Shown here: in pieces, positions 3,001-64,000 of the stretch
Numbering within the stretch: position 1 is the first letter of the stretch
Layout: every line of letters starts with the position of its first letter
Source: Raillietiella orientalis
Lineage: Eukaryota
NCBI GenBank assembly: GCA_036172245.1
Contig: JAYWIR010000004.1
Location: 5,456,001 to 5,520,000 of the forward strand
Direction: 5' to 3'
Length of the DNA stretch: 64,000 bases
Made by a program: the position numbers and the translations under genes
The notes under the pieces: model-generated
The model's input: the letters and a program-made list of their open reading frames with translations, nothing else
What the model was told of the DNA's origin: nothing
The model's database searches: none

Positions 3001-5221
3001 TTGCCTGTGACTGTTAAATTTCTTCATTCTCAAAATAAAGATCAAGAAAGTCGATTTTACATTAAAGTAATTTAATAAGTTATAAATGCAAATCTGTACA
3101 ATGTGCAATTTGTCATCCTTTTATGTGAATATGATTTCCTTTTGATTCTGGTAGTACTTGCGCAATTGTTTGTACCGGAAGGCGCTCCTTTCCTGGATGT
3201 TTCAGTTTTATGGTGAACATATTGTTAGTTTGTAAGCCAATTAACAGAAGTTTGCTCTCTACAACTAATTTCATTTATGCCTTTTGCAAGGTACCTCCAG
3301 CAAGCTGTTATGAACTGTGTAGTTCTTAGGCGTGTTTAAGTTCGGAATTGTACTGCGAAGTCAAACTTCTTAGCAAATACAAGAAGTTCCGTTTGCTGTT
3401 TACTGTTCACAGTATTGGCAGTTGAGATCGGATTTGTAATTTTATTTAATTTTTTTTTCTAACCCTGAAAAGTAGCTTTCCATGAACTTTGCTGATAATT
3501 TTCTACCAACAACTGCGTGCTTTGATTTAAAATGGTGGTCATACATAAATACGCGTATTCATTGTCTTTGAAAAAGTATTTGTTTAAGAATGCGTGCAAT
3601 GCGGCAGAATTATTTTAGTTATTTTATGTTGCATCGATCCATACCTGTGGTACACACATCTTAAAGATATTTTGTTTACACAGTATTCTGAATCATAGAA
3701 GCATGCCCTATTACGATTTTTACTCAGCTGTTAGATAATTTTTATGAAATCATGGGTTAATATCCACTAGGCCCATGATCTGTTATTAATGATAAATATC
3801 TTTTTCATGCTACTCAAAGGTACTAATTATCTCTTTTACAAAAGCAGCTTTTCAAAAGGGTGGTTCTAGATATTTGCAATGTCTCAAGGTTTCACCGTTT
3901 CCTCCCACAACTTGCATATGTTGTATCCCCTCCTTTGCATTTCTTGTAATGACATTGCAGCTTATGGAAGAAACTCTCTGTAACCACATTTATGTATTAC
4001 AATACTTTGTGATGGTTGGAATACCTAATATTTATGAAAACATGAAATGGAATGTGAGTGAATGATTTCATGAGAAATCAGTTTACCATTCTGGAAGTTA
4101 GAATTCACCATTATGGATTTTTTTGTTATTAACACTGCAGTATTTGTCAGTTCTCAGCATTCCAAATTATCTCTACCTGACTGATGTATTTATTAGAAAA
4201 GCATGTTGTCACTCACTCGGTTATGGGGGTTTTCATTTCATTTTGGTGGGATAGGATTTTCATTTGATTGTATTGCTTATTATTTTAGTTGTCACCTCAG
4301 CATCAATTAATTGAAAAGGATGACTAAATATTGTTCATAAATATCTCTAGGCAGTTATATGTTTTCAGATCTCTTATTGCCGAATTTTCACAGGAAATTC
4401 TGCAATAAGAGAGCAGTGCCTGTTACTGCCATGTCATTAATTTCATCGTTTTCTATGATGAATTTTAATGTTTCTCTCATTTTCTGAAGGCATAAATCTT
4501 TCAGTTGTTCATTGTTTTACTTTGTTTATTATAGTCAGCAGGTTGATTTATTCAAAGATCCTTTAGCCATTCAAAGCCTTTAACCACACTTTGTTGTAAG
4601 CGATTTTGGAAATTCTGTAGGTCATCAAGTTGTTTTGATATGAGTTTAAAGTGTCTACCTGATCAGCATTGCTATATTAGCTATCAAAGCAAAAATTGAA
4701 AATATGTGCTCCTGTAGATCAAAATTTATCAGTATTTGTACAACTCCAAGGTAATTTGTGAATCTGTTGAGTCAAGTTTTGTGAAAAATCGATGTAGTTT
4801 CCTCATGGTTTTCCTGGAAAATTCTTGATCAATAGTAATTGTGTACTAAAAACAAAAATTCGGTGTGCATATTAATTTTGAAGTGGATCTGTGCTGATGA
4901 TTGTTCTGAGCAAGTCTATGATTTGATAGAGGATAAAATGAGATTTGAAAAGGTTTCAGAAACTGTAATACCTATCAATAATAAAAGATATGAATGTGTT
5001 TTATTTAGTCATGCAAATGTTGGGAGAATTATTTAAAAAAAAAGAAATCAACACAAAGTTTGCTGCTTACAGTTTTATTTTTAATGTTTATTTTCTTATC
5101 TATTTGTGTGGTTTGTTCATTTAGTTCATATGCTTAGGTATATTTCATATGTTCTGTTATATCATTGCATTTTATATTATATTGCAGTTTGTTAAGTGGC
5201 TGAATTCCTACATTTATCATA

Positions 5222-7256
5222 ATGTCTGGTATTGGAACACTGACTTTTGATGAATATGGACATCCTTTCATCATTTTTAAAGATCAGCAAAATCAGAAGC
5301 GCTTAACAGGCACTGATGCCCTCAAATCCCATATTCTAGCAGCACGAGCTGTTGCTAACACATTGCGTACTTCTCTTGGCCCTAAAGGACTAGATAAAAT
5401 GATGGTTTCAGCAGATGGGGATGTTACCATTACTAATGATGGAGCAACAATGTTAAAACAAATGGATGTAGAACATCAGATTGCTAAATTAATGGTACAG
5501 TTATCTCAAGCTCAAGATGATGAGATAGGAGATGGCACAACAGGGGTTGTTGGTGAGTTTGAACTGTAAGGTCATCATTGGTTTATTGATCAGTTTAGTT
5601 CTGGCTGGTGCTTTGTTGGAACAAGCAGAGCAACTTCTTGATAAGGGCTTACATCCAATGCGTATAGCAGATGGGTTTGAGATGGCAGCCCACTGTGCAG
5701 TAGCCCATTTGGAAACCATTGCTGAAAGTTTACACATCAGTCCAGATAACTTAGAGCCACTAGTTCGCACAGCCATGACAGCATTGGGCTCTAAAGTGGT
5801 GTCTCGAGATCACCGACATATGGCTGAAGTGGCAGTGCAGGCTGTGCTAGCTGTAGCTGATTTCCAACTCTGTGATGTCAACTTTGAGTTGATTAAAGTG
5901 CAGGGAAAGGAAGGAGGAAGTCTTTCAGATACTCTCCTTGTAAAGGGTGTTGTGGTGGATAAAGATTTCTCCCACCCCCAAATGCCTAAAGAATTGCATG
6001 ATGTTCATATTGCAATCTTGACATGTCCATTTGAACCACCAAAGCCCAAGACTAAACACAAGCTTGATGTAACCAGTGTGGATGACTATCGCAAACTACG
6101 CCAGTACGAGCAGGACAAATTTGATGAAATGGTCGACTTGGTGAGTAATGTGATCAGAAAAGGCGCTAAGAATTGCAAAATAGCTAAGAGCTATATTGCC
6201 CAGACAAGCGCCATATTAATATCAACTGATCTGAGAATCGATCAGTGGTACAAACTATGTTTTTTAAGGTCAAAAAGGCTGGAGCTACCCTTGCTATTTG
6301 CCAGTGGGGGTTTGATGATGAAGCAAATCACTTGCTTTTGCAGCGTAACTTGCCGGCAGTGCGCTGGGTTGGTGGACCCGAAATTGAGGTTTGTACCATT
6401 TGTTTGTTAGTGTTTTGTGTGTCATTGTTTGTTTGTGTTTGGCTCCAAATTAGCCATTTTTGTGGCAGAAAGAGTCAGTACACTAGAGTAATGCATTCCT
6501 AACCATGCATCCCACTGTACATGGTGGCCGTGCCTGAGGGTATGACACAAATTGAAATTTTGTATTTTTCAGCTGATAGCTATTGCTACTGGAGGGCGCA
6601 TTGTACCACGCTTCCAAGAGTTAACCCCGGAGAAATTAGGAAGAGCTGGTCTTGTACGGGAAATTAGTTTTGGTACAACCAAGGATCGCATGCTAGTTAT
6701 TGAGCAGTGTCAGAATTCACGGGCTGTAACCATTTTAGTTCGTGGTGGCAACAAAATGGTACTTTTGGATATACTATGATGCAGATTACTGGTGTTTCGT
6801 ATTTAGATTGTAGAAGAAGCAAAACGCAGTCTTCACGATGCCCTCTGTGTAGTCCGCAACCTAATTCGTGATTCACGTATCGTATATGGAGGAGGTGCTG
6901 CTGAGTTGTCCTGCTCACTGGCTGTGGCACGCCAGGCAGATGATGTTACTGGATTGGAGCAATACGCCTTTCGAGCATTTGCTGATGCATTGGAGGCTAT
7001 TCCTCTTGCTCTTGCAGAGAATTGTGGCTTGCCTCCATTAGCAGTATTAACAGAAGTCAAGGCACGCCAGCTGAAAGAGTCAAACCCTGTTCTTGGTATT
7101 GATTGTAGCATGCAGGGCAGTGCTGATATGCGCCAACAACATGTTGTGGAATCACTGCTTGCAAAGAAACAACAAATCTTACTTGCCACCCAAGTGGTGA
7201 AAATGATTCTGAAAATTGATGATGTGCGCTGCCCAGAAGGCCCACTAATTGATTAA
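5222..7256 (+). CDS. CCT5: T-complex protein 1 subunit epsilon (CCT5/TRiC chaperonin); coding exons 5222-5552, 5599-6140, 6269-6388, 6573-6758, 6807-7256
   Basis: Spliced translation gives typical CCT-epsilon sequence: [120 protein letters not shown]. Four GT-AG introns (46, 128, 184, 48 bp) keep the frame. A probable 5'UTR intron acceptor lies at ~5187. Confidence 0.97.
6162..6255 (+). ncRNA. Intronic box H/ACA snoRNA, SNORA15-like; predicted guide for the 18S rRNA U equivalent to human U1367
   Basis: Lies in CCT5 intron 6141-6268. Hairpin 1 has lower stem GGCGCT/AGCGCC and upper stem GCAA-ATAGCT/AGCTAT-TTGC. Pocket strands GAATT (6170-6174) and CCAGACA (6199-6205) are complementary to conserved 18S UGUCUGG-U-U-AAUUC. 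H box ATATTA (6213-6218) follows 13 nt after the pocket top. A short hairpin 2 (ACTGATC/GATCAGT) precedes ACA at 6250-6252. Confidence 0.8.
6433..6552 (+). ncRNA. Intronic box H/ACA snoRNA; 3' pocket predicted to guide the 18S rRNA U equivalent to human U109 (SNORA42/SNORA80-type)
   Basis: Lies in CCT5 intron 6389-6572. Hairpin 1 is GTGTTTGGCTC...GAGTCAGTACAC with apical GCCA/TGGC. H box AGAGTA at 6485-6490. Hairpin 2 is CATTCCT...AGGGTATG with apical GCAT-CCACT/GGTGG-GTGC. Pocket strands AACCAT (6501-6506) and CTGA (6534-6537) are complementary to conserved 18S UCAG-U-U-AUGGUU. ACA at 6545-6549. Confidence 0.82.
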
Positions 7257-21774: not shown

Positions 21775-25125
<3,351 letters not shown>

Positions 25126-43800: not shown

Positions 43801-44179
43801 GCTCCGCACGTCAGAAAGGTGCGAGGGAGCGGCTGCTTTCGGAGAGGCGCAACCATCGTTGCACTCCTTCGCGGCCGAGCTCAAAGGCGGCGGCGGCGGC
43901 GGCGGCACGGAGAGACGCCGTGGGCATCCCTCCGTCCATCTGCCTGAAAGCAGGGCCGGCTCCCCGTCTCGCAGAGGCGGCAGAGTCCTTCCGCCCCTTC
44001 GCCAACCGCCGCACCCACCCCGGGAGCAGCGCCGGGGAAACGGTGCCCTGCAGCCTGACGGGAAGGAACGGCCCCTCCTGCTCCCTTCTTAAAGGAAGGC
44101 TGGAGCCAGAGATTGCCTCACCGCTTGGGATGAGGCTCTGCGGCACGTCCCCGTCACGGAACGCGCTGGTCTCGCCGCC

Positions 44180-44956
44180 GTGGGGGGTCGTTCCTTTAGC
44201 TGGCTCGAACTCCCCTCGCCTCTGCCCGAGACACCGAGAAAAAACCGTTTCTCTGAGCATTCACCAGATACACCCTCCCTCCTTCCTCCCAGAGATTTTC
44301 CACGTGGACTGCGGAGGAGGAGGCACAAAACGAGCGGCGGACCCGAGAGTGGTCCCAGGAGCAACGGTGCCGTCCTGGAACTGAGCAGTCACCTTCTTCC
44401 TCCCTACCATCACGGGATTTGGAGGAGTCCGAAGTGTGCCAGGTGCGAGGAACGCGAATTCCTTCCGCTCCTGCTTGTGGATTGTGTTGCCCTCCAGCCC
44501 CTCCTGGGAACGTTTTGCCGCTACCCTCGGAACCCCCGGCGGCAATCCCAGGGACGCTTCAAGACTCCTCGTACGCGACGCCCTTCAGGCCCGCAGTCTC
44601 GTCAGGAGCTCTCTCTGCTGCCTGAGCGGGATTGTAGAGGCCTGGAACGACGCAGGGGGTTCCACGTTCACTCTGCCCTCCGCTTCACAAGGATGGCAAC
44701 AAGATAATATATCCACCTGAATAATATGCGAAGTGAACTTGACTTGCCAGCATCCTGGAAAGGATGCAGAGGACTGCCTCCAGAAGACTGTGATCCCTTC
44801 CCGTACCTCCCCAGTTTATTATTTTTTCATTTTTGTTTCTTTTTGCTTTGCCCTTTCTCCTCCGCTGCCGAGGCGAACCCCACAAGCAATTCGGCAGGCT
44901 CCTTTGGAAATGTACGTGGTTGGACCACCGATCCAACCACACAGATTGTAAATGTT

Positions 44957-44987
<31 letters not shown>

Positions 44988-44990
44988 AAC
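44180..44990 (+). mobile_element. L1/Tx1-like LINE 3' end relic ending in (TA)n and AATAAA
   Basis: SPKCARCEEREFLPLLLVDC (44435-44485) aligns by eye with SPDCSLCEGKEMLPHALSDC of the 35.2 kb copy. It ends in TTGTAAATGTTTA(TA)n-AAATAAAC at ~44947-44990. Confidence 0.5.
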
Positions 44991-47900
44991 GCTTCAGCGC
45001 ACCCGGGTGAAAATCCGTGCAGCGATGACCAGACAGACAGAGACCTTGGTCTCTAAGACACAGCTGGAAGATGGCTGCTAGATCTGCAGGACCGGCTACA
45101 GGACCCGGGGAATCATCCCTCTGCAGGAGAATTTCTGCAGGACTTGCCAAGGAAGGAATCCCAGGAGGGCATGCGGGAGGGAATGACCCACCCTTCGCGC
45201 CCGCCCAGAGGGATAAGGGAGCGCGGAATTCCTGCAAGGGTGCACGCACACTCCGGGGAGTCGGAAGACGCGCATTTTTTTTTTTTTTTTGATGGGGGAG
45301 GAGGAAGGGGGGGTTGCAGTGAAGTACGCATCGTCTTTGCACCCCGGGAAAGAATTTTCTTCCGAGGAACGCTCGAGAGGTCTTTCAATGAAAACATCAT
45401 CTTCTACGCAGTCTGCATGACCGTCCGCAGGGCTGCTGAAGGAAGGTCTGTAGCTCCGCAGAAGAACCTTTCGTCCGCGTCTCGCCTTGGGGATGTAGTG
45501 GTGACCCCGGACTTCGACTTGTCCTGCGAGTCAAAGCTCCAGAGGCGCTGACCGCCATTCTTCTGCAGAGGAACCAAACCGGCTCGTCCTGTTGGAAAAG
45601 AGAGTGCTCGAGGGTCTCAAACGGGGGGGGCTGCCTCCTCCGTCACGACAACTGCCCCTCCCCTTCGTGCGAGGTCCGAGGGCGGAAGTAGATCCGGTGA
45701 CGGTGGCGGGGCCTCCAGAGTGCCGGGAGAGAACCATCGCAGAGCGAGAAAACTCCGGTCACCTCGGGAACCGGCTGCTCAGCCTCGAGGGAGCTCGCGG
45801 GAGCTCGCAGCGAACCGGCACCACCACCCACACCGACAAGCAGGCGGCGACCACGCTGACCGGAGACTGCCGAGAAGGCCGAACGAAAGTCGCCGCTGGT
45901 TCCGGGACGATCCGCGCGCACCCACCCGCTGGTCGCATGACACCTGTGACCCCTTTGCTTGCAGCCGAGAAGGAAGCAATCGCGGAGCTGCCCCGCAGAT
46001 GCAGCAGCAGTGCCTTCTGGAGCTCATCGTCTCTGGCGAGCGTCCCTGCCCGCGACGCGGCAGCTTCCGGTACTGCGAGAGGGATGGGAAAGTGCGGGGA
46101 GCCGCGGCCGCCGCCGTGCCGGGGAGGAACGCGCACGCGCGGGATGGCCGACCGGGAATTTGATTCACCCGACTGGCTTCCCAAAGGACCAATCGGACAG
46201 CGGGCGTCCCTTCCTGGATGGATGCGAGGAAGCAACCAGCGCAAGTCTCCCGCGCGCGATACGTCCGCTTCGGGATTTTCTTCACTTGCTCCCCCTCCCG
46301 CTCCCTCTTCATCCCGGCTGGCGGTGCTTTTTCCCGCCTCCCAGGCTGCTCTGAAGACGGAAAGCCGCGCTCCGTTTCGCTTCCCTCTCCTCCTTTCGAG
46401 TCCGGTGATCGTCGGGCGCCGCTCGTTCCAAGCGAGATGGAAGGCACCTGCTTCATCCCTACTCCTCCCTTCTTCCTTGAGGAGGAGACGGCGGAGCCAC
46501 GAACGTGGGAGCGTCCCAAGCAGCAGTGGCGGCTGGTGCGAGGTAGCAGAAACGCTTCACTCCCGTATCCCAACTCTCCGTCGCCGCTTTCCAGTCGCTA
46601 AGGAGACCTAAAATGCTCAGTTCCCTGAGCCACATTCAACCTCAGTCTTTCCCAGACCACACAGCCCGGGAGGAGGAGAACAACGGGAACCCCTTTCCCT
46701 CTCTCCCTTCAGTCCGCATCCTCCCCGCTGCGAATCCGGAGTGCTGGTGAAGAAGGGGGGGAGCAGGAAGCACAGCACGCTTCATCCATCCGCTCTCCCT
46801 TCCTCCGCTGGAACGGGAGACTGCCCGTGCTCTTCGGAGAAGAGGCCGAGGCTCAGCTTGTTGGGAGAGCCGCCTCGTTGTCTGAGAATGACTTCACGCG
46901 GCAGACTTCACGCCGAGGGCGAAAGTGGGGAGGGGGGAGCGACAGGGCTCCCGAGCTGCGCCGCGAAGGCCGATGGCGGATCCCGACTGAAGGTGAGCAG
47001 CAGTGGAAGCAGCAGCGAGGTCTTGCGCATATCCCCATCGGGGACGACCACCTGCGGCTCCGACAAAGGTCGCGTCCGCGCCCCGCTGCTCCATCCCGCT
47101 CGTAACGCTTGAGAAGGGAAAGGAAGGGGGGGAGGCGGGGAGGGGAGAAGGGGAGCTTCTCACCCGCCGCTGCTGAGACTCACATCCCGTCCCCTTCCTC
47201 CCTCCTGGAATAGCAGGAAGTCCATGGGGTCATGTGGGAGTCACCGCCAACTCCCGCCGCGTGATCGTGCGCAGAGGGAGAAGGGAAGAGAGGAGAGCGA
47301 GGTGGGAACTGCCGCCGTACGAGTGCCTCGGGAAAAGGTGCTGCTGTCAGCGAGGAGGGAAGGGAAGCAGGCTGCTTTCTGCCCCGTGTCTCTTCGGCAC
47401 CCTGTTACCTAGTTTTCTCTAGGCTCCACCCCGCCTCTCTGGTCTGCAAGCTGGGAAGACAGCGGCGGAGACAACATCAGCAGTTCCAGCCCATTCATCC
47501 TTCGACTCTCCCCCTCGCGTGTTCTTCGCTCTTGACGTTTGCTGCAAGAAAGATGGAAAGAAAAGGACGAAAAAGATACGGCGCGCTAGGCGAAGTCACC
47601 ACTAGCAGCATCTGTAACAGTGGCAGCTCCTCTGTTGGCGTGGCGGGGACAGTGGCCGGAGGTGTTCGACACAAGAGGAGAAAGGGGGAAGGAAAAAGTA
47701 CTCCCCTTTTCCGGGAGTGTTTCCTGCTAGGTCAGGGAAAACAAAACAGTTTCACCTTTTCGAGTCCCTCAGTCAAGATAGACAAGAAGATGACTCCACT
47801 TTTTGTCCTCGCCCTTCCTTCGGAAAGCCATTTGGTTTCCGCTGCCGCCCAGAGATCTCTGGGTCGACAGAACCTCAGCAGACGGACGCTCCCAGAAGTG

Positions 47901-48199
47901 GCACTTCGCCCCCGCCGTCGCTTTCCCAAGGACGGCCCTTCCAATGTCTCGGTGTGGAACCGGAGCCGGAAGAAAGAGAGTCGGGAGCTTGCACCGGGGC
48001 CAATCAAACAAAGTGTATCCCAAATAAAAAAAAAGAAAATCCCTCTCTTTTCAGTTCCCCCGCCTATTCTCTTCGCCTCGGCATGCGGCTCATGCACCTC
48101 AAAAGAATGGTCTTTGCATATGTCCGCTGTCCTACTGGACGCAGCATAGAGCTTGGCCAGATAGGGAGGTGAAAATGTCCTCCTGAGGCGGTTGGCATT

Positions 48200-48256
48200 A
48201 CTGTATCTTCACCATCACTTTTTCGTACTTTCGAAAAAGCCCCAATGGTAAAATAG
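48200..48256 (+). pseudogene. coxA: 3' end of a bacterial cytochrome c oxidase subunit I gene (coxA/ctaD), Wolbachia-like
   Basis: [18 protein letters not shown] matches the alphaproteobacterial CoxA C-terminus (W)TxSSPPPFHTFE. The stop lies 1 nt before the ctaB ATG, as expected in a bacterial operon. Confidence 0.75.
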
Positions 48257-48257
48257 A

Positions 48258-48631
48258 ATGTACACAAGTGCCTTGTTAAATGTTGAATCAACAATACTGG
48301 ATTTTTGGAATTTGCTGAAGCCAAGAATAATGTACCTTGTGGTATTTACTGCGGTTGCTGGAATGGTTCTGCACCAGGTAGTATTCGTCCTTATCTCGCG
48401 CTATCTCTTATATGTGTTGCTCTTGGTTCAGGATCCGCAGGTGCCATAAACATGTGGTATGATGAGGACATAGATCTTCTCATGAAAAGAACAAAAGATT
48501 GTCCTATACCCTGAGATAGAGTCTCCGCAGAAAGTGCGCTTGAATTTGGTATAACCCTTGGGGTATTGTCGGTATTTATTATGCCAATAGCAGTAGACTA
48601 TATTTCCGCCACTCTGCTTGCAGTTAGCATT
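48258..48631 (+). pseudogene. ctaB: Truncated, frameshifted protoheme IX farnesyltransferase (ctaB/cyoE), Wolbachia-like nuclear insertion
   Basis: [37 protein letters not shown] [1-nt deletion ~48369] [86 protein letters not shown]. Carries the LLKPR and NxxxDxDID..MxRT..P UbiA-family motifs. No introns and no mitochondrial presequence. AT-rich inside a GC-rich region. Confidence 0.9.
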
Positions 48632-51600
48632 TCTGGATGAGACCAGCGGCCGCGAAGGAGGGGCCCGGCCCAAATGGAGGTTCTGTGGTGGTGAACGGGG
48701 AGCGAAGCTTGGAATAGGGTTCCTTTCCCTCCTTTTCCTCTTCCCCCTACCCTTCTCCCGAGAATCCAGGAACACGGCAGGAAGGATGAGGATGAGCAAT
48801 GCTGTTGGTGTCGCTCGTTCTGCTGCCCTTCCTACCTGCCCGTTTCGGAGAGTTCCCCAGAAGAGATCCGGCGGCGTAACGGAGGACGACGTGAAGACTA
48901 CGGTTCGTTGCCGCTCCATGGTCCCACGACGGCGGTCCCTGGGTGCTGCAGGCGTCCGGACGCTATCTGTGGCGAGGGTTGCGTACTTCGGCTGCGTCTT
49001 CAGGAAGGGATAGCTTTCCCGAGGCGCGAGACTGCATCCCCAGCCCGTCTTAGGCGGAAATACTCTGCGTGACCTCGCGGCATCGTTCGGAAAGGAAGAG
49101 AGTGTATCCTGAAGCGGATGGAGGGTGCTCACCAAGCGCTTCGGACACCAGACCCGGTTCAAACCTCTGATTTGCTCTCCTCCTTCAGCCAAGCCCTCCT
49201 GCCCATCCCAGAACAGCCTGAAGCTCCGCCCCTGAGCCCCGGTTAGGGAATCCCGTCAGGAAGCGATTTGGGTAGGGTAGAAGGAACCACCGTCTCTCTC
49301 ACCGTGGCAGAGGTACTCCTGTGCAAGGAACGAGACCAAGAGAGAGAAGGGACGAGGAAAGATTGCTTCGCGACCGGCAAATAGCGTCGGACGAGCGCAG
49401 ACGAGGAAGCCAGGACGAGTCTTCCGGCCGATGCGCGGGATCGATCGGCGAAAGCGCTCTGGAAGAAGGGGACGCGGCAAGGACACCGTCCGCTTGCCCA
49501 GGTTCCGTCACCAGCTAAGCAGTTGCCCGCAGGCCGGGAAAGGGGGAGAGGACGAAAGGAGGAGGGAGTAGGAGCCATGACGTCTGTTCCCAGAAGCGAG
49601 CGTCCTCTTCCCCTCTCTGTCTCTGCCAGGAAAAGCTCTTGCCCCCTATCCTCCGCGCCACACATGTACGCCACGCCCTCTCATGGCCACCTTTACCAAG
49701 CACGTCTATACAATCCGTTCACTGTTTGCCCCGCACACGGAGGAGGGTCCTCTGCGCATGGGCACCGAACCTACTCCGGTGCGAGGACCGGAGTATGTTC
49801 AAACGCTGCAACGCTCTTTCCTGGATCTTTTCGGAATGGAGTCGCAGGGAGAGTGTGGAAGTAAAGGGCTGGGGTGGAAAAGGAACCTTTCAGAGGAGAA
49901 CGAAGGAGATGATAAGGAATGGGATGGGTCCAAACGAGAACTTCCGTTTTCTCACCTCGGAAACGGATTCCCTACTTCCAGCCTCGCACCCCAATCCCCT
50001 CGGCTGCTCCCTCCCGCCCTCAGGAGATCCACCTTTGTTGCGGACGACAAAAAGGTCCAAGTTTCGCGTCTCTAAGTAACCAAGGGAGGGAAGAAGCAAA
50101 GTTGTGAAGAGCAGCAGCCGTCGGAGACAGGCATTTACGTCACGCGGACGCCTACTGCGCTGCAATCCGGAACGGCTCCTCGATATCGCCTGCATCCCGA
50201 AACCAGCGGATGGTTAGCAAGGCAACGTCGTGTGGAAAGTCCTGTTAGGTTCATCCTGTTTCGCGCCTTTGCTTCGTGCAGGAAACGAATACCTTACTTG
50301 TTCCCAAAGATGGCGGCGGTCCTCTTGCCCGCCCCCTCATTCCGGCCAGTAGACAGCAGCAGCTCGCAAAGACGACGAACGGCTTCCATGCGTTCTCCTC
50401 TTCCTTCGCTGAATGGAGAACACGAAAGCCTGGAACGCTAGCGGTTAGCTTGTTTGCAACAGGAATGCTGGAAGAGTGGGGAGAGAGCAACGTCCCCGTT
50501 CCCATTCCACGAGTGGTTTCCCTTTGTAAAGAGGAAGGGTAGGGGTGCTCTCGAAAGCTCTTTTTCCTTTCTCGTTTTGCAGCAAGCTCGCAGGGCAGCG
50601 ATGGGCTCCTAAAAGACACAATCGTTTGTGGTGCATGTGCCACCTCCCGGAAGCATGCTCGCAAAACATTCGGCCATCCGTTTTCATGGAGGTAAAGCAT
50701 CGCACAATAATCCGAGAGAAATGGCTTCCTGATGCCCAACTGATTGCACAAAACCGCTCCCTGATGCCTAATTACTTGGACAAACAAATTTCTTAATAAC
50801 GAATCAACGCCACGAAATTTCCCAGCGCACAAATTCAATAAATCAAAGAAATTCGATAAAAGGAATCCCTTGCGGATCACAAACTGGGATGCGCAAAATG
50901 GAGGGTTTTTTTTCGGGCCTAGGGAACGCGCGTCGTGATTCGCTCTCCAGCTCCAACAATGCTCGGCCCTCTGTTGGCGCCGTTTAAGATTTTCTAGCGG
51001 CGTGCACTTTCCGTGTAGCCATTCCAGTCCTTTGCGCGGTTCGCATGCAATGCGGAAAGAGGGCAGCGGTGACGAGGAAACGTAATTGCGGCGCAGAAGG
51101 ACACCCTTTCCCATTCTTCAATTTTAAAAGGATCCGCACCTTTCAGATGCAAGAAACAAGGCCGAAGCTAAAGTAAACACGGACGAATTTACACTACAGT
51201 GCAGTCTTGCGTGCTTCGAAAATTGTATTTGAAACGCACAGATGGTGCCATTGGTGGTGTTGAAAGCTCATCTTGTTTTTGTGACGGTTCATCAAGTGAG
51301 GCGATATTCATTTATTTATGGGGAAAGTAGTCCATACGCGTTGGTTGTCATTTAACCAAATGAAGAAGATAGTATGAAAATCTCGTGCATGCAGCTTCGG
51401 CGATTTCATTCGGTGAATCCTTCAGCAAGAGGAAAAAATTTCTATGGCTTCGATCATCAATGCTTCATCGCGAAAGATGCATACTGGAATTTAGCACACA
51501 TCTGGAACATGCTTATTAGTTTTCACCGCAACCACATTTCGGCATGGCACTACTCAACTCTCTATGGACAGATGAAACGCATTTTCTAGTAAGTACTCTC

Positions 51601-54600
51601 TTCTAGTGAGTTGCGATATAAAGAATCGAAAGATTCCCATGAAACACTAGTGTTCGCATTGCGAAACAGGATTTCAGCAAAAAAAAAAAAAAAACACTGC
51701 ACTGCTGTTTCCTATGCTGCCGAGAGTTTGTAAAGATTGGGTTGTTGATTTGCGATCTCCCGTCGAAGTCCGTTTTGATAATTTTTCGCTATTCATTTCC
51801 TAAATCCCAATCAAGCATACGTACTTGCTTCCCGAATTAGGCTCTCGAAGCACATGCCAGCTTTTAGGTTATAAACGCATCGGGACAGAGAGAAATGAAA
51901 GAAAGAAAGAAAGGTTTACTTTCTCTTTCCGATTACCAATTGGATTGCCTGATTAATTCTTCCGGTACGGTAACGCAATGACAAGAGCAAAAAGAAAATA
52001 CGCGCTCACACTTAAAAAATAAAAAAAGAAAATCATAATTAGCCCATCACAAGGGGGAACGTCCAGATGGTCTGCAATCGATATAAATGTTAGCCGAAAG
52101 GTAAACAAGCGTTTCCCGAGTAACCAGCTTAACAGCTCGCGACGCCATTTCTAATTAGCCTATTGTTTGGCCTCGGTCAACACGGAAATCTGCGCTTCTT
52201 GTAACATTGCAAAAATTATGAAGCCATGTCTCTTCATTGCGCAAAAGCCAAACGAATTCAAATGCCGGAATTATGAGTTATGAGGGCTGTTGGAAGACAT
52301 TCGTCCAAAGACCTTTCATAAATTAACTCGTATAAAAGATTGATGATTTTTTAATCTGTCAGAAGATGCTCCGTGCATTCCTTGAGCAGGATGTAGTGGA
52401 AACAAGTGTTGGGTTACCGAAGCAAATGTGTTTTTTTTTTTGTTGTTGTTGTTGCTGCGAGCCATTGCTCCTGTTATTCGTATGCTTGACCTGTTATTTC
52501 AGTTCATACCTACATCATCGGCTAAACAGAAATGATTGAAATTCACCCAATTCATTTGACATCTCTGGAATTCAAATTGCTAAGATTGAAACTTCCTCTC
52601 CAGTGTTCCTAACGGATCCTGTTTAAAGAAGTTCATATACACTCATGTATAAGACCCTCGTTCCCCTTGATCAACGTGCCAGAGTGAAGAGATGAATAGC
52701 AACAACAGAAGGAGCGAGTTTTCATTTCGCAGTTTTCCGAATTCTCAAGGATCTCGAGAGCATTTTCATTTCCGCCTTACGCCAGGCTGTCCACAAGCTT
52801 CGAGAACACGTTCTGCAAAAAAGGTCTGCTCTCTTTGCAATGCGGAAAAATTCGGGTGTGGTGTGCTATTCGTGATCCCTCAAGAGTGAACGTGTTCAAG
52901 CATCCGATATTACTCTTGTAATGTGTACTCTAATCGTGCTTAAACGTGCATTTAAGCAACGGAAACGCTCCAGAGCATGTCAATAATCTCGCTCGTGGAA
53001 CAAACAGATTCTTTCTAAATTATTCAGCACAATTCTGTGGAATGGTGTTTTCCTTGTCATCTAGCTGGGCCCAGGGTTTGCAGAAACGTGTCTCCGAGGA
53101 AATACTTCACTTGCACGTCGACTTTTTCTAGTATTTCACAATGAAGACGACGTACGAGCAACGGCTGTAAACGCGCGCATATATATATACACACATACAC
53201 ACACATACACGTGCGCGCGTAGCCTGCGGATCGCCCGTTCATCACACGACATGTGACTTTCAATCGAACGCGACCTTTTAATCATGCTAAACTCTTTCAA
53301 CGTAGTGCGTGTATAATGTGGTATTTTACTTGATTAACTTGGTAAACAATTCAGCCTCTCTGCTCATTTGATCGACGCAAAGTTTTACGCACCACTAATA
53401 AGTTTATCATGTACGTCCCCATCTTTTGATCGAGACTGATGTGGTCGAACCATCAGTTTATTTAAGGACATGACGCTCTGTGCACGAAACTCTGTGACCT
53501 GGTAAGAAAGGAGGATCTTCCACGTGGTTGCCGCCACGAATAATCATTAGTGAGTGATTCTGAATTGTGTTTGCCGAGAAAATGACAGATTTTGTTTATT
53601 CACGTCCCGATTCATGAAGAACCACTCATAAAAGCTTACATGAAAAAGTGAAATTGAACCCCAACTGCCTGCTTCGAACGCTGCCCGACTATCGTCACGT
53701 CGGTGAGAACAACGTACATGATTTTAACTTGGGTTACGTGTGAATGGATAAAGGGGACCCAACAGCAGCAACTCTGAATGAAACTTGAATTACGACGAGT
53801 AGCGTATAAAACTATCAAGAGACGGAAAGCAGACTAAAGAATGGATGAACAATCATCATGCAGCACTTCAAATAAAATCGATGGCAGTTTGTCACATGAA
53901 TTACACTGCCAATATCCTTAGAATTATTTACGTACCAAACGAGCCCACGCTTCTCGTCATCATTACCCAGTAAAATTCCAATCAGCAGATTCTAAAGAGG
54001 ATGCTAAAAACCTACTTTTCGCCATTCATTCTTTGACGTTTTGTACCTCCTGAAAACCTAATTGAATGCATGCAAAGCATCGAGCTATAGGATCGTGAGG
54101 ATCCAAAAGTGGAAAAGAAAGACAATGCATCGCTCCCGAGTGAGAACAAAAAAAAAAAACATCACAGGAGCTGGCAGTTGATACGAAAACTGCTCATTTG
54201 AGATGGAGAAGCTACATATCACGTGACTGGAAGCAGTTCTTCTAAACAAAAAGATGTTTCTAGAATTCGAGAGAAAACTACTTCTGAAGACTCTCGTGTC
54301 CACGCAATTGAAATCCATTCTGATCTCTAAGCGAAAATGAAGGGCAGATGACGATTGAAGAAAATCTTCACTCGAAAATAAAGCACAAAAAAGGTAGCCT
54401 GTCACTGAAGAAAATGAGATAAGTCAAGTTCCCCAAGGGGAAATAAGGAGAAACATATATATTTAGGCATGTTCATAAGGAAATGGAAATTCAGAGTGCT
54501 CTGATTCTCTGATCAAAAAGAAACGAAGAAAAGAGATCAGCAGAATACCGCATCGACAAGATGCGAGCTTGGTTTATAGGAATACGTTGATCAACTTAGT

Positions 54601-57600: not shown

Positions 57601-60600
57601 CAGCCCTCAAGTGCGATCTTTCGTTTGAAGATCAACACAAATAGAACCAAGGAATACATACAGAAGATTAAAATTGAAGGAATGAGAAAACTGTTGATGT
57701 TAGAGAAAATATAATCCAATTATCTCGTTCACTAAACCTCATTTGTCAGTTGACTAAGTCACTGCCCAAGCAACGACCAGTGACGGATACCATTTCGATG
57801 AGGAACCAAGGGGATTCTGATGTTATGTGGAAGTAGGCACTTTGCCCTTACCCAGAATCGTTTCGAGAATATTTTTCCTGCGTACTCACCGGGAGAGTCA
57901 AAATCAAGAATTTTGACATATTTTTCGATTCGACGATAGCTTAAAGTAAAGATTCTCCATCAGTGGCGTATTAACCACAGATAAGATTTCTCTAAGATTC
58001 TTCGGTCCCTTTCTAGAGCAGAATCATTGTCATCACGACGTTACAAAGATTCTAAGTTCTTGTCCGAGATCCCATTTGGACTTATTTGTTATTTTTTTGC
58101 CTTACTTCGGAACGAAATATCGGTAAGACTGCTGCTTTGTATGAACGATACAGGATAAAGTTGATGGATTGTGGGATATTTCTGCAACATTTGCAAAATG
58201 ATTCCTGGATCTGTCTGCGCAGCTAATGAAATCCGTGGGCATTCCATTCGTTGAATGCTGAACGCAGAAAAATGTTAGTCATCCACTGTAATTTACAGAT
58301 TTCGTGAAAATCTTTTGCGATTTTTGTGCCTGTGATCTTATTCAAGTACGACTTTTTATGCCCTTGCGAACGTTTTGGACTTGATATACGGCAATAAATG
58401 TCACAACATTAACATTTGACCAGACAACGCGCCAGATTGATTGCTTCTACACTGTAAGGATCATTCGGATAATAGTGTTCGTATCAAAATACAGGAAACA
58501 AGAAAAATGTGTATAACAACGGAACCATATGATATACAAAAATGGAAATCCTCCGAAACGATCAAAACATTTCCAGATATTTTCTCCTAAAACTGGGTGA
58601 AATAAAATTCAAAATCAAAAACTGCGCATATGTAAATTTAATACTTGCGCACATTGTATAATGTATTCATGTAAAATTCACATGCATGTGTAATTTCCTT
58701 TATTTCATGTTTTCGGTCAACCAGAATGAGGTTGCTTAGTATTATTGCATAATTATGAATATGGAGGAAAATACCGTCGTATGGACCGTCTTAAGCCCAT
58801 TTACCTTAGAAAATTTTTATAATGCTTGCCTAGATCTTGAACGATGCAGGAAAAATTACAGACAATTTGCACACAGGGCAAAAGAAGTGCACAACAAAGA
58901 AGAAATGCTCTCTTCCTTGCTTTGCAACAAATCCAGATGCAGGATGTCCTTTACACTTGCTGCTGCTTTGCAAGCGTGCCCAGTTGGATGACAATGACGC
59001 CCTTCAACGGCATTCCTGTCGGACTTAAGATTAAGGAATTGTCTGAAGGAGCACTGATTCTCGGATGAATACCTCGTGAACGGCAGGTCTAGCCGTGACT
59101 GGAAGATTTCTATTGCACAACCTGAGGGAACCTCCTCTGAGAATCGAGCAAAACAGTAGGAAGTCTTGCCCTCCATTTACTGCAGAAAAGACCTCATCCT
59201 GTCCGTGGAGATCATGGCGTTTCACACCGCCAATCAGGACTTCCCATCTGTAATTAAATGTTACAAGCACTGCAAGAACGCACAAGTAACTATGCAAACA
59301 TTGCATTTTGCTACCCTCATTCTATTACTGGGAGGTCTGGTAGTCAACATATTTATATTTCCCTACAGGCGTATACGTATGAAATGCATGCACATTTGTG
59401 CATACTTTCGGCACCATCACCCTAAACTCGAAATCCTTAATGAACATTTTTTTATTACCAGAGCTCTTAGAATTTGAACAAGGTTACATTACTCCTTTGC
59501 TATTCGTATTTATCTATTTAAATTTATTGCTGTCAGTTGCTAGTGATTTTCTACAAAAGTTTCAAACGCAATCCGTGATTTATTTTGAATAATGCGACTT
59601 CTAGAAGGACTGAGTGGAATGAAAACATCAAAGTTCTTGTAATAGGCACACATTGCAGTGTTTAATGTCCCGAGCGTTCTCATCCACTGCCAACGGAATT
59701 GCACGATGGAGCACTTCGTTTCAAGAACATTTCGTCGAGTAGATCTCCCCAAGCTTATCCTTACTCTGCCGTATACTCATAAATGGAGTGCAAATGAAAA
59801 CTTAAGGATTTGTTTTCGATCGTTGTGCCTGCTTTTTGAATAAAGAAAAAAAAACACGTTTTTTTCAAACATGTGGAGATGTAACTAAAATTACAGAAAA
59901 TAAATAAAAGCGAGTAGATTCAAGGGACCAAAGATTCTTAAATTAGCTGCAACTGAACAAGACAGCTTGATTCGATGCACTGATTGCAATTACAAAGGAA
60001 AAGTATGAAGCTTTGCACAGGGTTTCATAGGTAAAAAAGAAAAGAAAATAGACAGGAACAGAATTTATTTCCATAGACGTAATTTTTAAACACAGAGTAG
60101 CTAACCGTGTCGAAATTGGAAAACGATGCTCTACGGAGAGAAAACGAAGCGAAACTATCCCTTAGCTCTCTCTTAGCTCTGGCCAGATTATTTTGCAGAC
60201 GAGACTTACTAAATACAGCTAGTCATGGGTAGCTGCTTAGTATCAAATGAATGAATGAACCACCATGGGATATTATTATATCAGGCGCAACATTCAGTCC
60301 TGAAATTTCACGAGGAACGATAGAAACAAAACATCTGCAGCTTACTAGATTCGCCTAAGGAGAAATGCAAGCAAAATCCGGCCACGACAGTGCGAGTTGT
60401 TTTTTTTTTTTTGCACTGCGAGTTGTTTCTATTGCTCTCACTTCGAGAACATTCTGTTTCATAAATAAAAACGCATCAAGAGTGATACGAAAGTCTTAAA
60501 ACCAAAAAGCACTAGCCTGGTGAAGTTAAGGGATGCTAATAAAGGTATGATAATAAAGGGTGTCGTGAAAATTCCTTAGCATTTAAGAAATTACTAAGGT

Positions 60601-62522
60601 TGGTTAGTTTGTATGCCATGCCCGACAACGCAATAACACAAGCGAAATCACGAAGTGTTACTCAGTTTCAAACACAAAATATAAACGTGAATACAAGACA
60701 ATTTTTCCTATTCTGTAAACAAAAGGCACACTTCAAAAAAAAAAACGGAAACCCTAGAATCGCACGGCTTGCCAAGTAATTGATCTGAAAAGATGCTTTC
60801 GAGGCATGCAACTTTAACATACGATAAATTGAAATAGTGTTAACAGCAGTTTACTCGCACACAATTGGTAACACACCACGCAAAGGACACATTGTCATCC
60901 GGATGGAACATTGGTCGCAGGTATCCGTGAATCACATCATGACGAAATCAAATGATCTGTGAATCAGGCACCGTAAAGAAGCCCCCGCGTGATGGATGAT
61001 CCAGAAATCAGAATGGAAACACAACTTTACTACGCCACAAGCACTAACCCAATTAGCTCCGTACTTGGAAGTGCTACTCTACTCGTACAAGTGGTGTTTG
61101 CAATGGATATGGAAAACCCAAGCATCGAAAAACACAACCGAGCAGCTGTTTTTTGATGTTATAAGATAACCGAGCAGCAGCTATCTTATTACTGTCGTGA
61201 TCATCAGCTGAAACCACCTTAACGAAACACCACAAGAACAAGCAATGCGTGCTTTTCCCCTTATTTGTACCTCACGTAAGGTGGTGGGAAACAAATTGCT
61301 TGGGTTGACCACTGTTTACCTGCAATACGGTCTTCCTTCACTTTTCGATTTTCTAGTGTCTTGCCCCTCACTTTAATCCATATTCAATCAATACAATGAA
61401 ATACTGTGATAGTAATTTTAATGAACACTGATGAAAATTCAATAGAAAAAAAAAAAAAAAAACTGCTCTCTCAACAGTGCCATTTACGTTCATTCATTTC
61501 TGCGTGTTCCGCAAAAATGAGAAGTGCTAAGCTTTCCCAGTAAAACACTTACAGACAATTATTTCACAATATAACAGATCACAGGATTGTGCTTAGGAAT
61601 TAAGCATTTTACACAAAGTACAATAAACAAATGATCACTTTTGTTTTGTTTCTTGCAGGCTTTCCCACAGCTTACGCTAAGCACAGTGAAAACGGTTGGT
61701 AGAAACTTACTTTTCTCTTAGAATAATCATCTTATTGTCTCCCCTCCTCCCGTCCCTCATAATTTATATGTCCCAAATAAAGCGATTAAGACGATTCACT
61801 GGAGCTAAATGCTGGAAACGCTACTGATGTTTTCAAGTAAGTTTCCAGATGAAATCTTCCTATTAATGCGCTATCGTATGCTTTTCCAAAACGCCGTCTT
61901 TCTTTCTTTTCTTTTTACCAAAGTACTTTTTTATTTTCACAATACTTTCCCTTTTTCCTATCTCCAGCCAATCCATTTGTTCCTGGAATAGGTAATTTTT
62001 CAATGTTTGCAGAAATACTTTTCCAGAAATGGGAGGTTCTATTGATGGGCTCGCATTTGGAAAAATTCGCTGCAATTGCCAGATTACCATAGATTTTAAG
62101 TGCCTCTTTAGAAGCTTTATAATACAAAAACAAATGTCTTCACTGCTATGTACAAATGCGAGTTAGCAAATCACCAAAAAAAAATAAAAATACAGATACA
62201 CAAAATCTGTAATATAATTCAAAGTGTACTTTGATCACGAAATCACGACTGCTTGAGTCTGTAATGCGATGGGAGATGTTATGACAGAAAAGTCTTACTT
62301 TTCCCGAAATATTTTATAAAAGTACACTCCACAGCTCAGCACAAGAATCCATCGCACCAGTAAACATCTTCAAGATGGAACACATCAACAGGAAGCATTC
62401 CACATTACCCGACTGAAAGTCAAGTAATCTAGAAACCAAAGCAGCATCAAAGAAGAAACACCGAAGCCATTTACAAAGAACAGTGATCAGGATCCGCAGG
62501 TTCCTTATTTTTCCATATATTT

Positions 62523-62866
62523 CAGAGGTTCCCAAACCACGGCCCGCGGGCAACTTATGGCCCGTCTGCTTTCAGAAAGTGGCCCGCGAAGCCTCAATAT
62601 GTAATATAATATATTTTAATAATTACACAAATTTATTGACGTTCAAGTAAATAAATATTATTTTAACGAAAGTTGCAGCAATGCGCGATGTACAGTATTC
62701 CAGAGTTTAGCATCTAAAATTCTAAATTATGGTTGCTGAAAGTTAAGAATGATATTGCACGACTTTCATAACTTTATAAACATTGATAATTTTACAACCT
62801 TGTGACCCGCTTAATTACAGAAAATAGTAGATATGGCCCTCTACTTGAAAAGCTTGGGAACCACTG
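62523..62866. mobile_element. Non-autonomous hAT (Charlie-type) MITE, 344 bp
   Basis: TIRs CAGAGGTTCCCAAAC and GCTTGGGAACCACTG, subterminal GGCCCG motifs, AT-rich core, and 8-bp TSD ATATATTT/ATCTATTT (7/8). Confidence 0.85.
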
Positions 62867-64000
62867 ATCTATTTGGACCAAAGTGTACTTCCTTTAAAGC
62901 ACTGCTCAAAAACGAAACGCGGTCCTGAACGATCCATATTTTCTATACTCTTGCTTTGCCGATTGCCAGAATGAGCCCACACAGACTAAAAGTGCAGTAC
63001 CATTGTCCTACGAAGTTTCTTTCCACTGGATGTACATCCTACTTGTTCATGCCCACGAAAAGAAAAAGGAACGGCAAACTCATGGTCTGTTTCAAACTTC
63101 AGTGTAGGCATTATGCTACTGCAAAAGTAATGCCACAAAGTAACGTGAAAAACATGATTAACAATCTGCAGGTAAAACTCCTCAAAAGGTTTCTTTTGTA
63201 CCAAGATGTTGGCAATGAGAGTTGATAAACAGTAAAAATATGAATTTGAAATCCATGCTTACAAGTGCTTAGTAATTTCCTCAAATTTCAATCATGACTT
63301 ACGAACATTTTCATCTGCAAATAATAAGGCTCACAGATAGAAACACCCTGCTAATTAAAATGAACACAATTCTTCCACTCCATCCAAATCATATAGAGTT
63401 ATCCACTCTAAGAACGCAAACGCAATACCTACATGAATTCATGTTTCCAAAATATAAGCTGTAATGTTGCTTATGTTTTGGAACTTGCAGAAAATCGTGA
63501 AATTTTTACGTGATGAGGCACAACTGGGGCATACGTGCCTTTTGGGGCCTTTTTGTTAAATAGGCAATGCTCAAATCAAATGTGGTGCACCCGTGATAGA
63601 TGGAAGCACTTGATTAACATGGAATAGCTCGTTTAAGTGGGATTTTCCAAGGGTCGCTGTCTATGGAATCGAATGCTTTCCCGCACGTTAGAAAGAATTT
63701 TATGGGATCCAAATAAGCCACGATTGCGAGCACAGAGAGCAACTAACGTTTTTGATAAATGACTCATTTATTCGAACCCAACTCTCTACTGCGATGAAAA
63801 TTAGAAATGAAATATGCAAGTAAGCACGAAATCACACCAGTCCTTGTCTTGGGGATAGCCAGCGTCCAAGGAGCGTTTCGCGAGGATGTTGCTGCTAACA
63901 CCCACACATAGTAGCACCGCACATACTCATCCTATGATGTAGGTGCAATTTTTGGAAGGCTCCTTTACTTTAAAAGGAGTCAGGTACTGCCCAATTGTCA

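Follow-up and report, generated by a model that had tools for sequence, protein, structure and literature searches.

Wolbachia DNA occurs in the nuclear DNA of arthropods and nematodes, and these nuclear Wolbachia transfers (nuwts) are usually fragmentary, pseudogenised and non-functional. The first broad survey of them is reportedly that of Dunning Hotopp et al. in 2007. Many of the known cases are large, ranging from tens of kb to whole genomes, as in Drosophila ananassae, or are recent. In contrast, the locus described here is a single piece of 431 bp that differs by about 9% from the nearest sampled Wolbachia and that is alone in the 64 kb of DNA analysed (hereafter the window, positions 1-64000). 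Degraded Wolbachia remnants have been treated as a record of lost infections in the woodwasp (PMC8962096) and in filarial nematodes (PMC12693587), where decayed pieces in the host genome are taken as fossils of an earlier symbiosis. The present 64-kb window has one such fragment only.

The closest living counterpart of the fragment is the coxA-ctaB operon of supergroup F Wolbachia, represented by wPaur (JAJEUB01), wMoz and the MAGs Gx481_bin163 and Nx346_bin4 (loci L010 and L001, respectively). The two have the same gene order and the same 1-nt spacer, with 88-91% DNA identity over 431 bp, but the copy in the window is truncated at both ends, frameshifted, interrupted by a stop codon and mutated at invariant residues, and it is not a working gene. 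Numts, the mitochondrial equivalents of nuwts, are generally presumed to arise by the same route of capture at chromosome breaks followed by neutral decay. The source in the present case is bacterial rather than mitochondrial, since ctaB beside coxA is a bacterial gene order. We regard the fragment as, very probably, a nuwt that is old and non-functional, and that is solitary within the 64 kb.

Anatomy of the fragment and its host surroundings

The fragment forms a 431-bp island at 48200-48630 with an overall GC content of 0.406. Measured over 200-nt intervals its GC content is 0.39-0.43, compared with 0.52-0.64 in the flanks, in keeping with an earlier note on this DNA that had described an AT-rich island of about 430 bp in GC-richer surroundings. 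The features of the locus and its neighbourhood are listed here; the clade-mates are the ten Wolbachia sequences that group with the fragment in the phylogenetic tree described below.

5204-7253, + strand: TCP-1 chaperonin pieces split by introns, in four ORFs (Pfam)
24307-25122, + strand: homeodomain exon ORF (Pfam)
47800..48199, no strand: left host flank, GC-richer and dissimilar to what lies before this point in Wolbachia
48200..48256, + strand: 3' end of coxA (cytochrome c oxidase subunit I), a Wolbachia pseudogene fragment of 18 codons plus TAG at 48254-48256 (translation)
48257..48257, + strand: 1-nt intergenic spacer, an A that separates coxA from ctaB and was retained from the bacterial operon
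48258..48630, + strand: 5' part of ctaB (heme O synthase, UbiA family), a Wolbachia pseudogene with its ATG at 48258
Between 48368 and 48369, + strand: frameshift through a 1-bp deletion of a G that is present in 10 of 10 clade-mates (alignment with Wolbachia; translations)
Between 48401 and 48402, + strand: in-frame 3-bp deletion, one codon's worth (donor codons 49-50, L-I; alignment with Wolbachia)
48512-48514, + strand: premature stop TGA, from a TCA that encodes Ser in 32 of 33 Wolbachia rows (translation; alignment)
48631..49100, no strand: right host flank, GC-rich and unlike the remaining part of ctaB

In the multiple alignment the coxA tail lines up with the last part of coxA in 10 Wolbachia loci. 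The ctaB piece covers donor codons 1 to about 126 of 295, the first 43% or so of the gene; nothing of the enzyme's second half is left, and the region that would match residues ~127-295 of the L010 CtaB protein is missing. Two pieces of ctaB reading frame are 97% and 83% identical to L010 CtaB, and Pfam UbiA matches 48359-48511 with an E value of 1e-9 and 38.5 bits (cut-off 34.2). The fragment lacks the full-length open frame of ~295 aa that is expected of a functional CtaB/CyoE and, being composed of 18 codons of one gene and about 43% of another, it is by its sequence a piece of DNA without function. Our count of 18 CoxA codons, one spacer nucleotide and ~126 CtaB codons agrees with the earlier note, which had put the last figure at ~125. 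That note had also recognised both the frameshift and the TGA at 48512-48514; it had overlooked the in-frame deletion of 3 bp at 48401/48402.

Similarity to Wolbachia ends abruptly on both sides of the fragment, both in the multiple alignment and in sensitive blastn searches of the flanks against all fetched loci. Homology spans 48200-48630, and the match to the closest strains begins at 48204 because of two private mismatches. On the left, a sensitive blastn search with 47200-48215 against all fetched loci returned chance-level matches only (E 4.7); on the right, the match stops at base 16 of a query that starts at 48615, corresponding to position 48630. Target-site duplications and flanking repeats were sought in 46500-50500, where only short, low-identity, chance-like repeats were found, and Rfam had no matches in 44000-53000. 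The whole 64 kb was also searched, in four pieces, against five Wolbachia genomes. Only 48200-48630 matched, at 85-89%, apart from one marginal match of 29 bp, and neither 1-40000 nor 59001-64000 had any match to the five genomes. The marginal match, at 53178-53206, is 93% identical to a contig of wPaur (G004:C125) with an E value of 9e-4 and probably arose by chance.

Both flanks are non-Wolbachia and GC-rich, they are contiguous with the fragment in the assembly, and they lie in a window with intron-split arthropod genes. The largest (5529-6407) of at least four TCP-1 exon pieces encodes the epsilon subunit, and its best named relatives come from diverse arthropods at 69-77% identity; the host is thus an arthropod that has no close relative among named proteins. 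Judged by the same identity values, the host lineage seems to be poorly represented in protein databases. The four TCP-1 ORFs and the homeodomain ORF are the only ones with Pfam matches among the 298 ORFs, taken from stop to stop, that reach 90 aa. The earlier note had placed the fragment in an 'Mnx gene desert'. The homeobox part of this description stands to the extent that Pfam finds a homeodomain exon; as for the desert, the ORFs of 90 aa or more that lie from 25.2 to 64 kb are all without a Pfam match, though short exons would escape a scan of this kind. The homeodomain at 24307-25122 looks like one of the Mnx class, and a PDB sequence search with the homeodomain piece was headed by engrailed, GBX, GSX and others and did not single out Mnx.

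The homeodomain itself breaks off after LMLTETQV (position 44 in the Pfam model) and picks up again about 65 codons further on, the intervening Ser/Pro-rich gap remaining open in frame. Probably this gap represents a short intron that keeps the reading frame and occupies the classic 44/45 position. The GC content per kb is uneven across 1-64000, ranging from 0.315 (4-5 kb) to 0.741 (21-22 kb), with a GC-rich block at about 13-51 kb around the homeobox gene that is flanked by DNA of 0.32-0.46 GC.

The Wolbachia donor

When one genome of each prokaryote species was scanned with the protein as guide, 20 loci were confirmed. The ten best belong to Wolbachia or to 'Rickettsiales' MAGs of the same genus set and have 78-87% amino acid identity to the fragment, against 41-57% for the remaining ten (Magnetovibrio, Rhodospirillales and others). 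At the DNA level every one of the 60 genomes in the Wolbachia genus set matches 48150-48700, with identities of 68-91% and a best E value of 4e-170; for the ctaB part the identity to Wolbachia genomes is 85-91%. The best blastn match is to L010 (MAG Gx481_bin163), with 90.7% identity over 431 columns, 36 mismatches, 2 gaps and an E value of 3e-171, which places the resemblance to Wolbachia far beyond chance. The ORFs of L010 that lie upstream of the match and across it were identified as CoxB (TIGR02866), CtaD_CoxA (TIGR02891, 707 bits) and heme o synthase (NF003349, 336 bits). In this locus 2888 is the last position of the coxA ORF and the ATG of ctaB is at 2890, leaving the same 1-nt spacer as is seen in the window. 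Thus, on the evidence of sequence similarity, the fragment at 48200-48630 is Wolbachia DNA.

The earlier note had named Wolbachia as the donor from a remembered resemblance of the CtaB N-terminus, and had stated that coxA followed by ctaB is a bacterial gene order. The DNA matches throughout the genus and the gap in protein identity between the ten best loci and the rest bear out the first statement, none of the ten top loci lying outside Wolbachia and its same-genus MAGs, and the second is borne out by the NCBIfam-confirmed order coxB-coxA-(1 nt)-ctaB in the closest Wolbachia locus. A mitochondrial origin was considered and rejected, given that ctaB adjoins coxA with the 1-nt spacer of the Wolbachia arrangement and that identity to Wolbachia is 85-91%. 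Among metagenome contigs, a protein-guided scan found 16 loci, all with at most 57% amino acid identity, revealing no second copy and no closer donor. An exact scan of such contigs for a 24-base word that spans the left junction had 0 matches, hence no independent copy of that junction. As a separate observation, the MAGs with loci L001 (Nx346_bin4) and L010 (Gx481_bin163) are titled only 'Rickettsiales bacterium'. Both fall in the genus set of Wolbachia and in the F-like clade, ranking first or nearly first in closeness to the fragment, and the titles of their records under-classify them.

We built a maximum-likelihood tree from 34 rows and 438 columns, comprising the fragment and 33 Wolbachia rows. 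The latter were L001-L010 and 23 loci from the 30 best genomes of the genus after seven duplicate loci had been dropped, the 30 weaker and more distant of the 60 matching genus genomes being omitted. A split supported at 99/99 separates the fragment and 10 rows, among them wMoz and wPaur, from 23 rows that include wPsyChr together with wOo and wLbra, the last two of which we take to represent supergroups C and D. A phylogeny of the ctaB region, which the earlier note had proposed as a means of placing the donor, thus puts the fragment with the wMoz and wPaur rows. These ten F-like rows also have the highest identities to the fragment. Both wMoz (from Mansonella ozzardi; PMC10195089) and wPaur (from Penenirmus auritus; JAJEUB, the record of L002; PMC9903615) are described as members of supergroup F. 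Within the F-like set the fragment appears as the sister of L010 with support of 82/0, and a tree in which it lies just outside the ten rows is not rejected (p-AU 0.41). Taken together, the 99/99 grouping and the p-AU value for the outside position point to a donor in supergroup F or its immediate stem, as judged on one 431-bp locus, and a position at the base of the clade would fit too.

Decay of the fragment and competing explanations

The ten clade-mates are 92.7-99.1% identical among themselves; the fragment is only 86.9-90.8% identical to them. Its end branch in the maximum-likelihood tree measures 0.12 changes per site, about ten times the median of 0.011. Private substitutions number 36 if at least nine of the ten clade-mates are required to agree at the position. 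Two of them (48631 and 48633) are probably part of the flank, so the figure for the fragment is about 34-36. Among the codon changes 17 are nonsynonymous and 16 are synonymous. Nine of the 17 replacements affect residues that are invariant in all 33 Wolbachia rows, namely P6S, P7L, H9R and V16M in coxA and H44R, F46Y, R83C, G88D and N115D in ctaB; R83C and G88D adjoin the premature stop. Replacements occur in 6 of the 18 codons of the coxA tail, including the four at residues invariant in the 33 rows. By its frameshift, its 3-bp deletion, its TGA, its long branch and its replacements at invariant sites, the fragment is distinct from the genome of a living symbiont.

Third codon positions hold 14 of the 28 private substitutions in ctaB, more than the one third expected under pure neutral decay. 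This excess suggests that a part of the long branch may predate the transfer and have accumulated under selection in an unsampled donor lineage. The synonymous codon changes are directed towards G/C in 11 of 16 cases, and the GC3 value of the fragment (0.312) is the highest of the 34 rows, the next-highest row having 0.310 and the clade-mates 0.175-0.278. The shift of third positions towards G/C is a weak signal, one that would fit residence in GC-rich host DNA, where drift towards G/C at third positions rich in A and T might alternatively account for the excess.

Wolbachia contamination is, as is generally known, frequent in arthropod assemblies, and reads from a live Wolbachia might have been wrongly joined into a host contig. 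Such an artefact should have yielded DNA that is intact and on a branch of normal length. What we find instead is a piece of just 431 bp, bordered left and right by host-like DNA of the same 64-kb stretch, that differs by 9-13% from ten clade-mates whose mutual differences are 1-7%; an essential respiratory gene in it is frameshifted, interrupted by a stop and short of one codon, and there are nine replacements at residues that are invariant across the 33 Wolbachia rows. Given this high divergence and the intactness expected of live DNA, a live-bacterium contaminant or an assembly chimera is very improbable. The earlier note had already held the lesions to argue against contamination by a live bacterium, a view that the tenfold longer end branch, the 17:16 ratio of codon changes and the nine invariant-site replacements strengthen further. 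It is scarcely credible that the fragment has been co-opted to serve the host, for example as cis-regulatory DNA or as a non-coding transcript near the homeobox gene. It does lie beside a developmental gene, in a stretch (25.2-64 kb) without coding domains recognisable by Pfam, yet it has no open frame, there is no Rfam family in 44000-53000, its substitution load is drift-like, and no observation made here points to a function.

The age of the insertion is the point at which a further explanation has to be weighed. A recent insertion from a divergent, unsampled Wolbachia would leave a young fragment whose long branch is mostly the divergence of its donor. The third-position excess in ctaB allows for constrained evolution before the transfer, a ratio of nonsynonymous to synonymous changes near 1 leaves room for a constrained share of this kind, and a placement outside the ten F-like rows was not rejected in the tree comparison. 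However, none of the 60 species-level genomes of the genus that were compared is closer than 91%, and three disabling lesions together with nine replacements at invariant residues need time without selection. Moreover, the direction of the synonymous changes runs against the AT bias for which Wolbachia is generally known and fits the GC-rich flanks. We therefore consider a recent insertion unlikely. The reading of the fragment as an old endosymbiont-to-host transfer, which the earlier note had put forward, has in its favour the divergence, the three lesions and the invariant-residue replacements.

Origin, age and significance of the insertion

The origin that we propose for this nuwt is as follows. 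A piece of a Wolbachia chromosome spanning the coxA-ctaB junction would have been captured into the nuclear DNA of an arthropod germ line, from a donor in, or at the base of, the clade that contains the supergroup F strains wMoz and wPaur. By analogy with numts and other nuwts, DNA from lysed symbionts was most likely taken up as filler during the repair of a double-strand break in the germ line, and it would have come to lie in a non-coding region, some 23 kb downstream of the homeobox gene. Capture would have been followed by fixation and then by neutral drift as host DNA, giving rise to the frameshift, the in-frame deletion, the stop and the private substitutions. Residence in the nucleus may account for roughly 4-10% divergence, depending on the share that is given to the donor lineage. 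With neutral rates in arthropods of about 2-10 x 10^-9 per site per year, the private branch puts the age of the insertion, as a rough estimate, probably in the range of millions to tens of millions of years.

The fragment is a record that the host lineage was once infected, as it possibly still is. The more specific proposal, in which a supergroup F (or stem-F) Wolbachia infected a poorly sampled arthropod lineage and the fragment is the fossil of that infection, fixed and millions of years old, is one that we regard as rather doubtful. The phenomenon is already well known from many insects and worms, so that one further endosymbiont-to-host transfer is a modest addition; the fragment encodes nothing functional and alters no concept. 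It does serve as a warning to annotators, and to those who operate contamination filters, against discarding or mis-calling the locus. It also flags an infection of the host lineage, past or present, by a supergroup F-like Wolbachia, and it could date that infection if it were found in a sister species too. If the fragment is a true fossil and is present at the orthologous site in related species, it would set a dated minimum age for the association between this Wolbachia clade and the host group, and if it is common to those relatives it would provide an outside calibration point for Wolbachia substitution rates.
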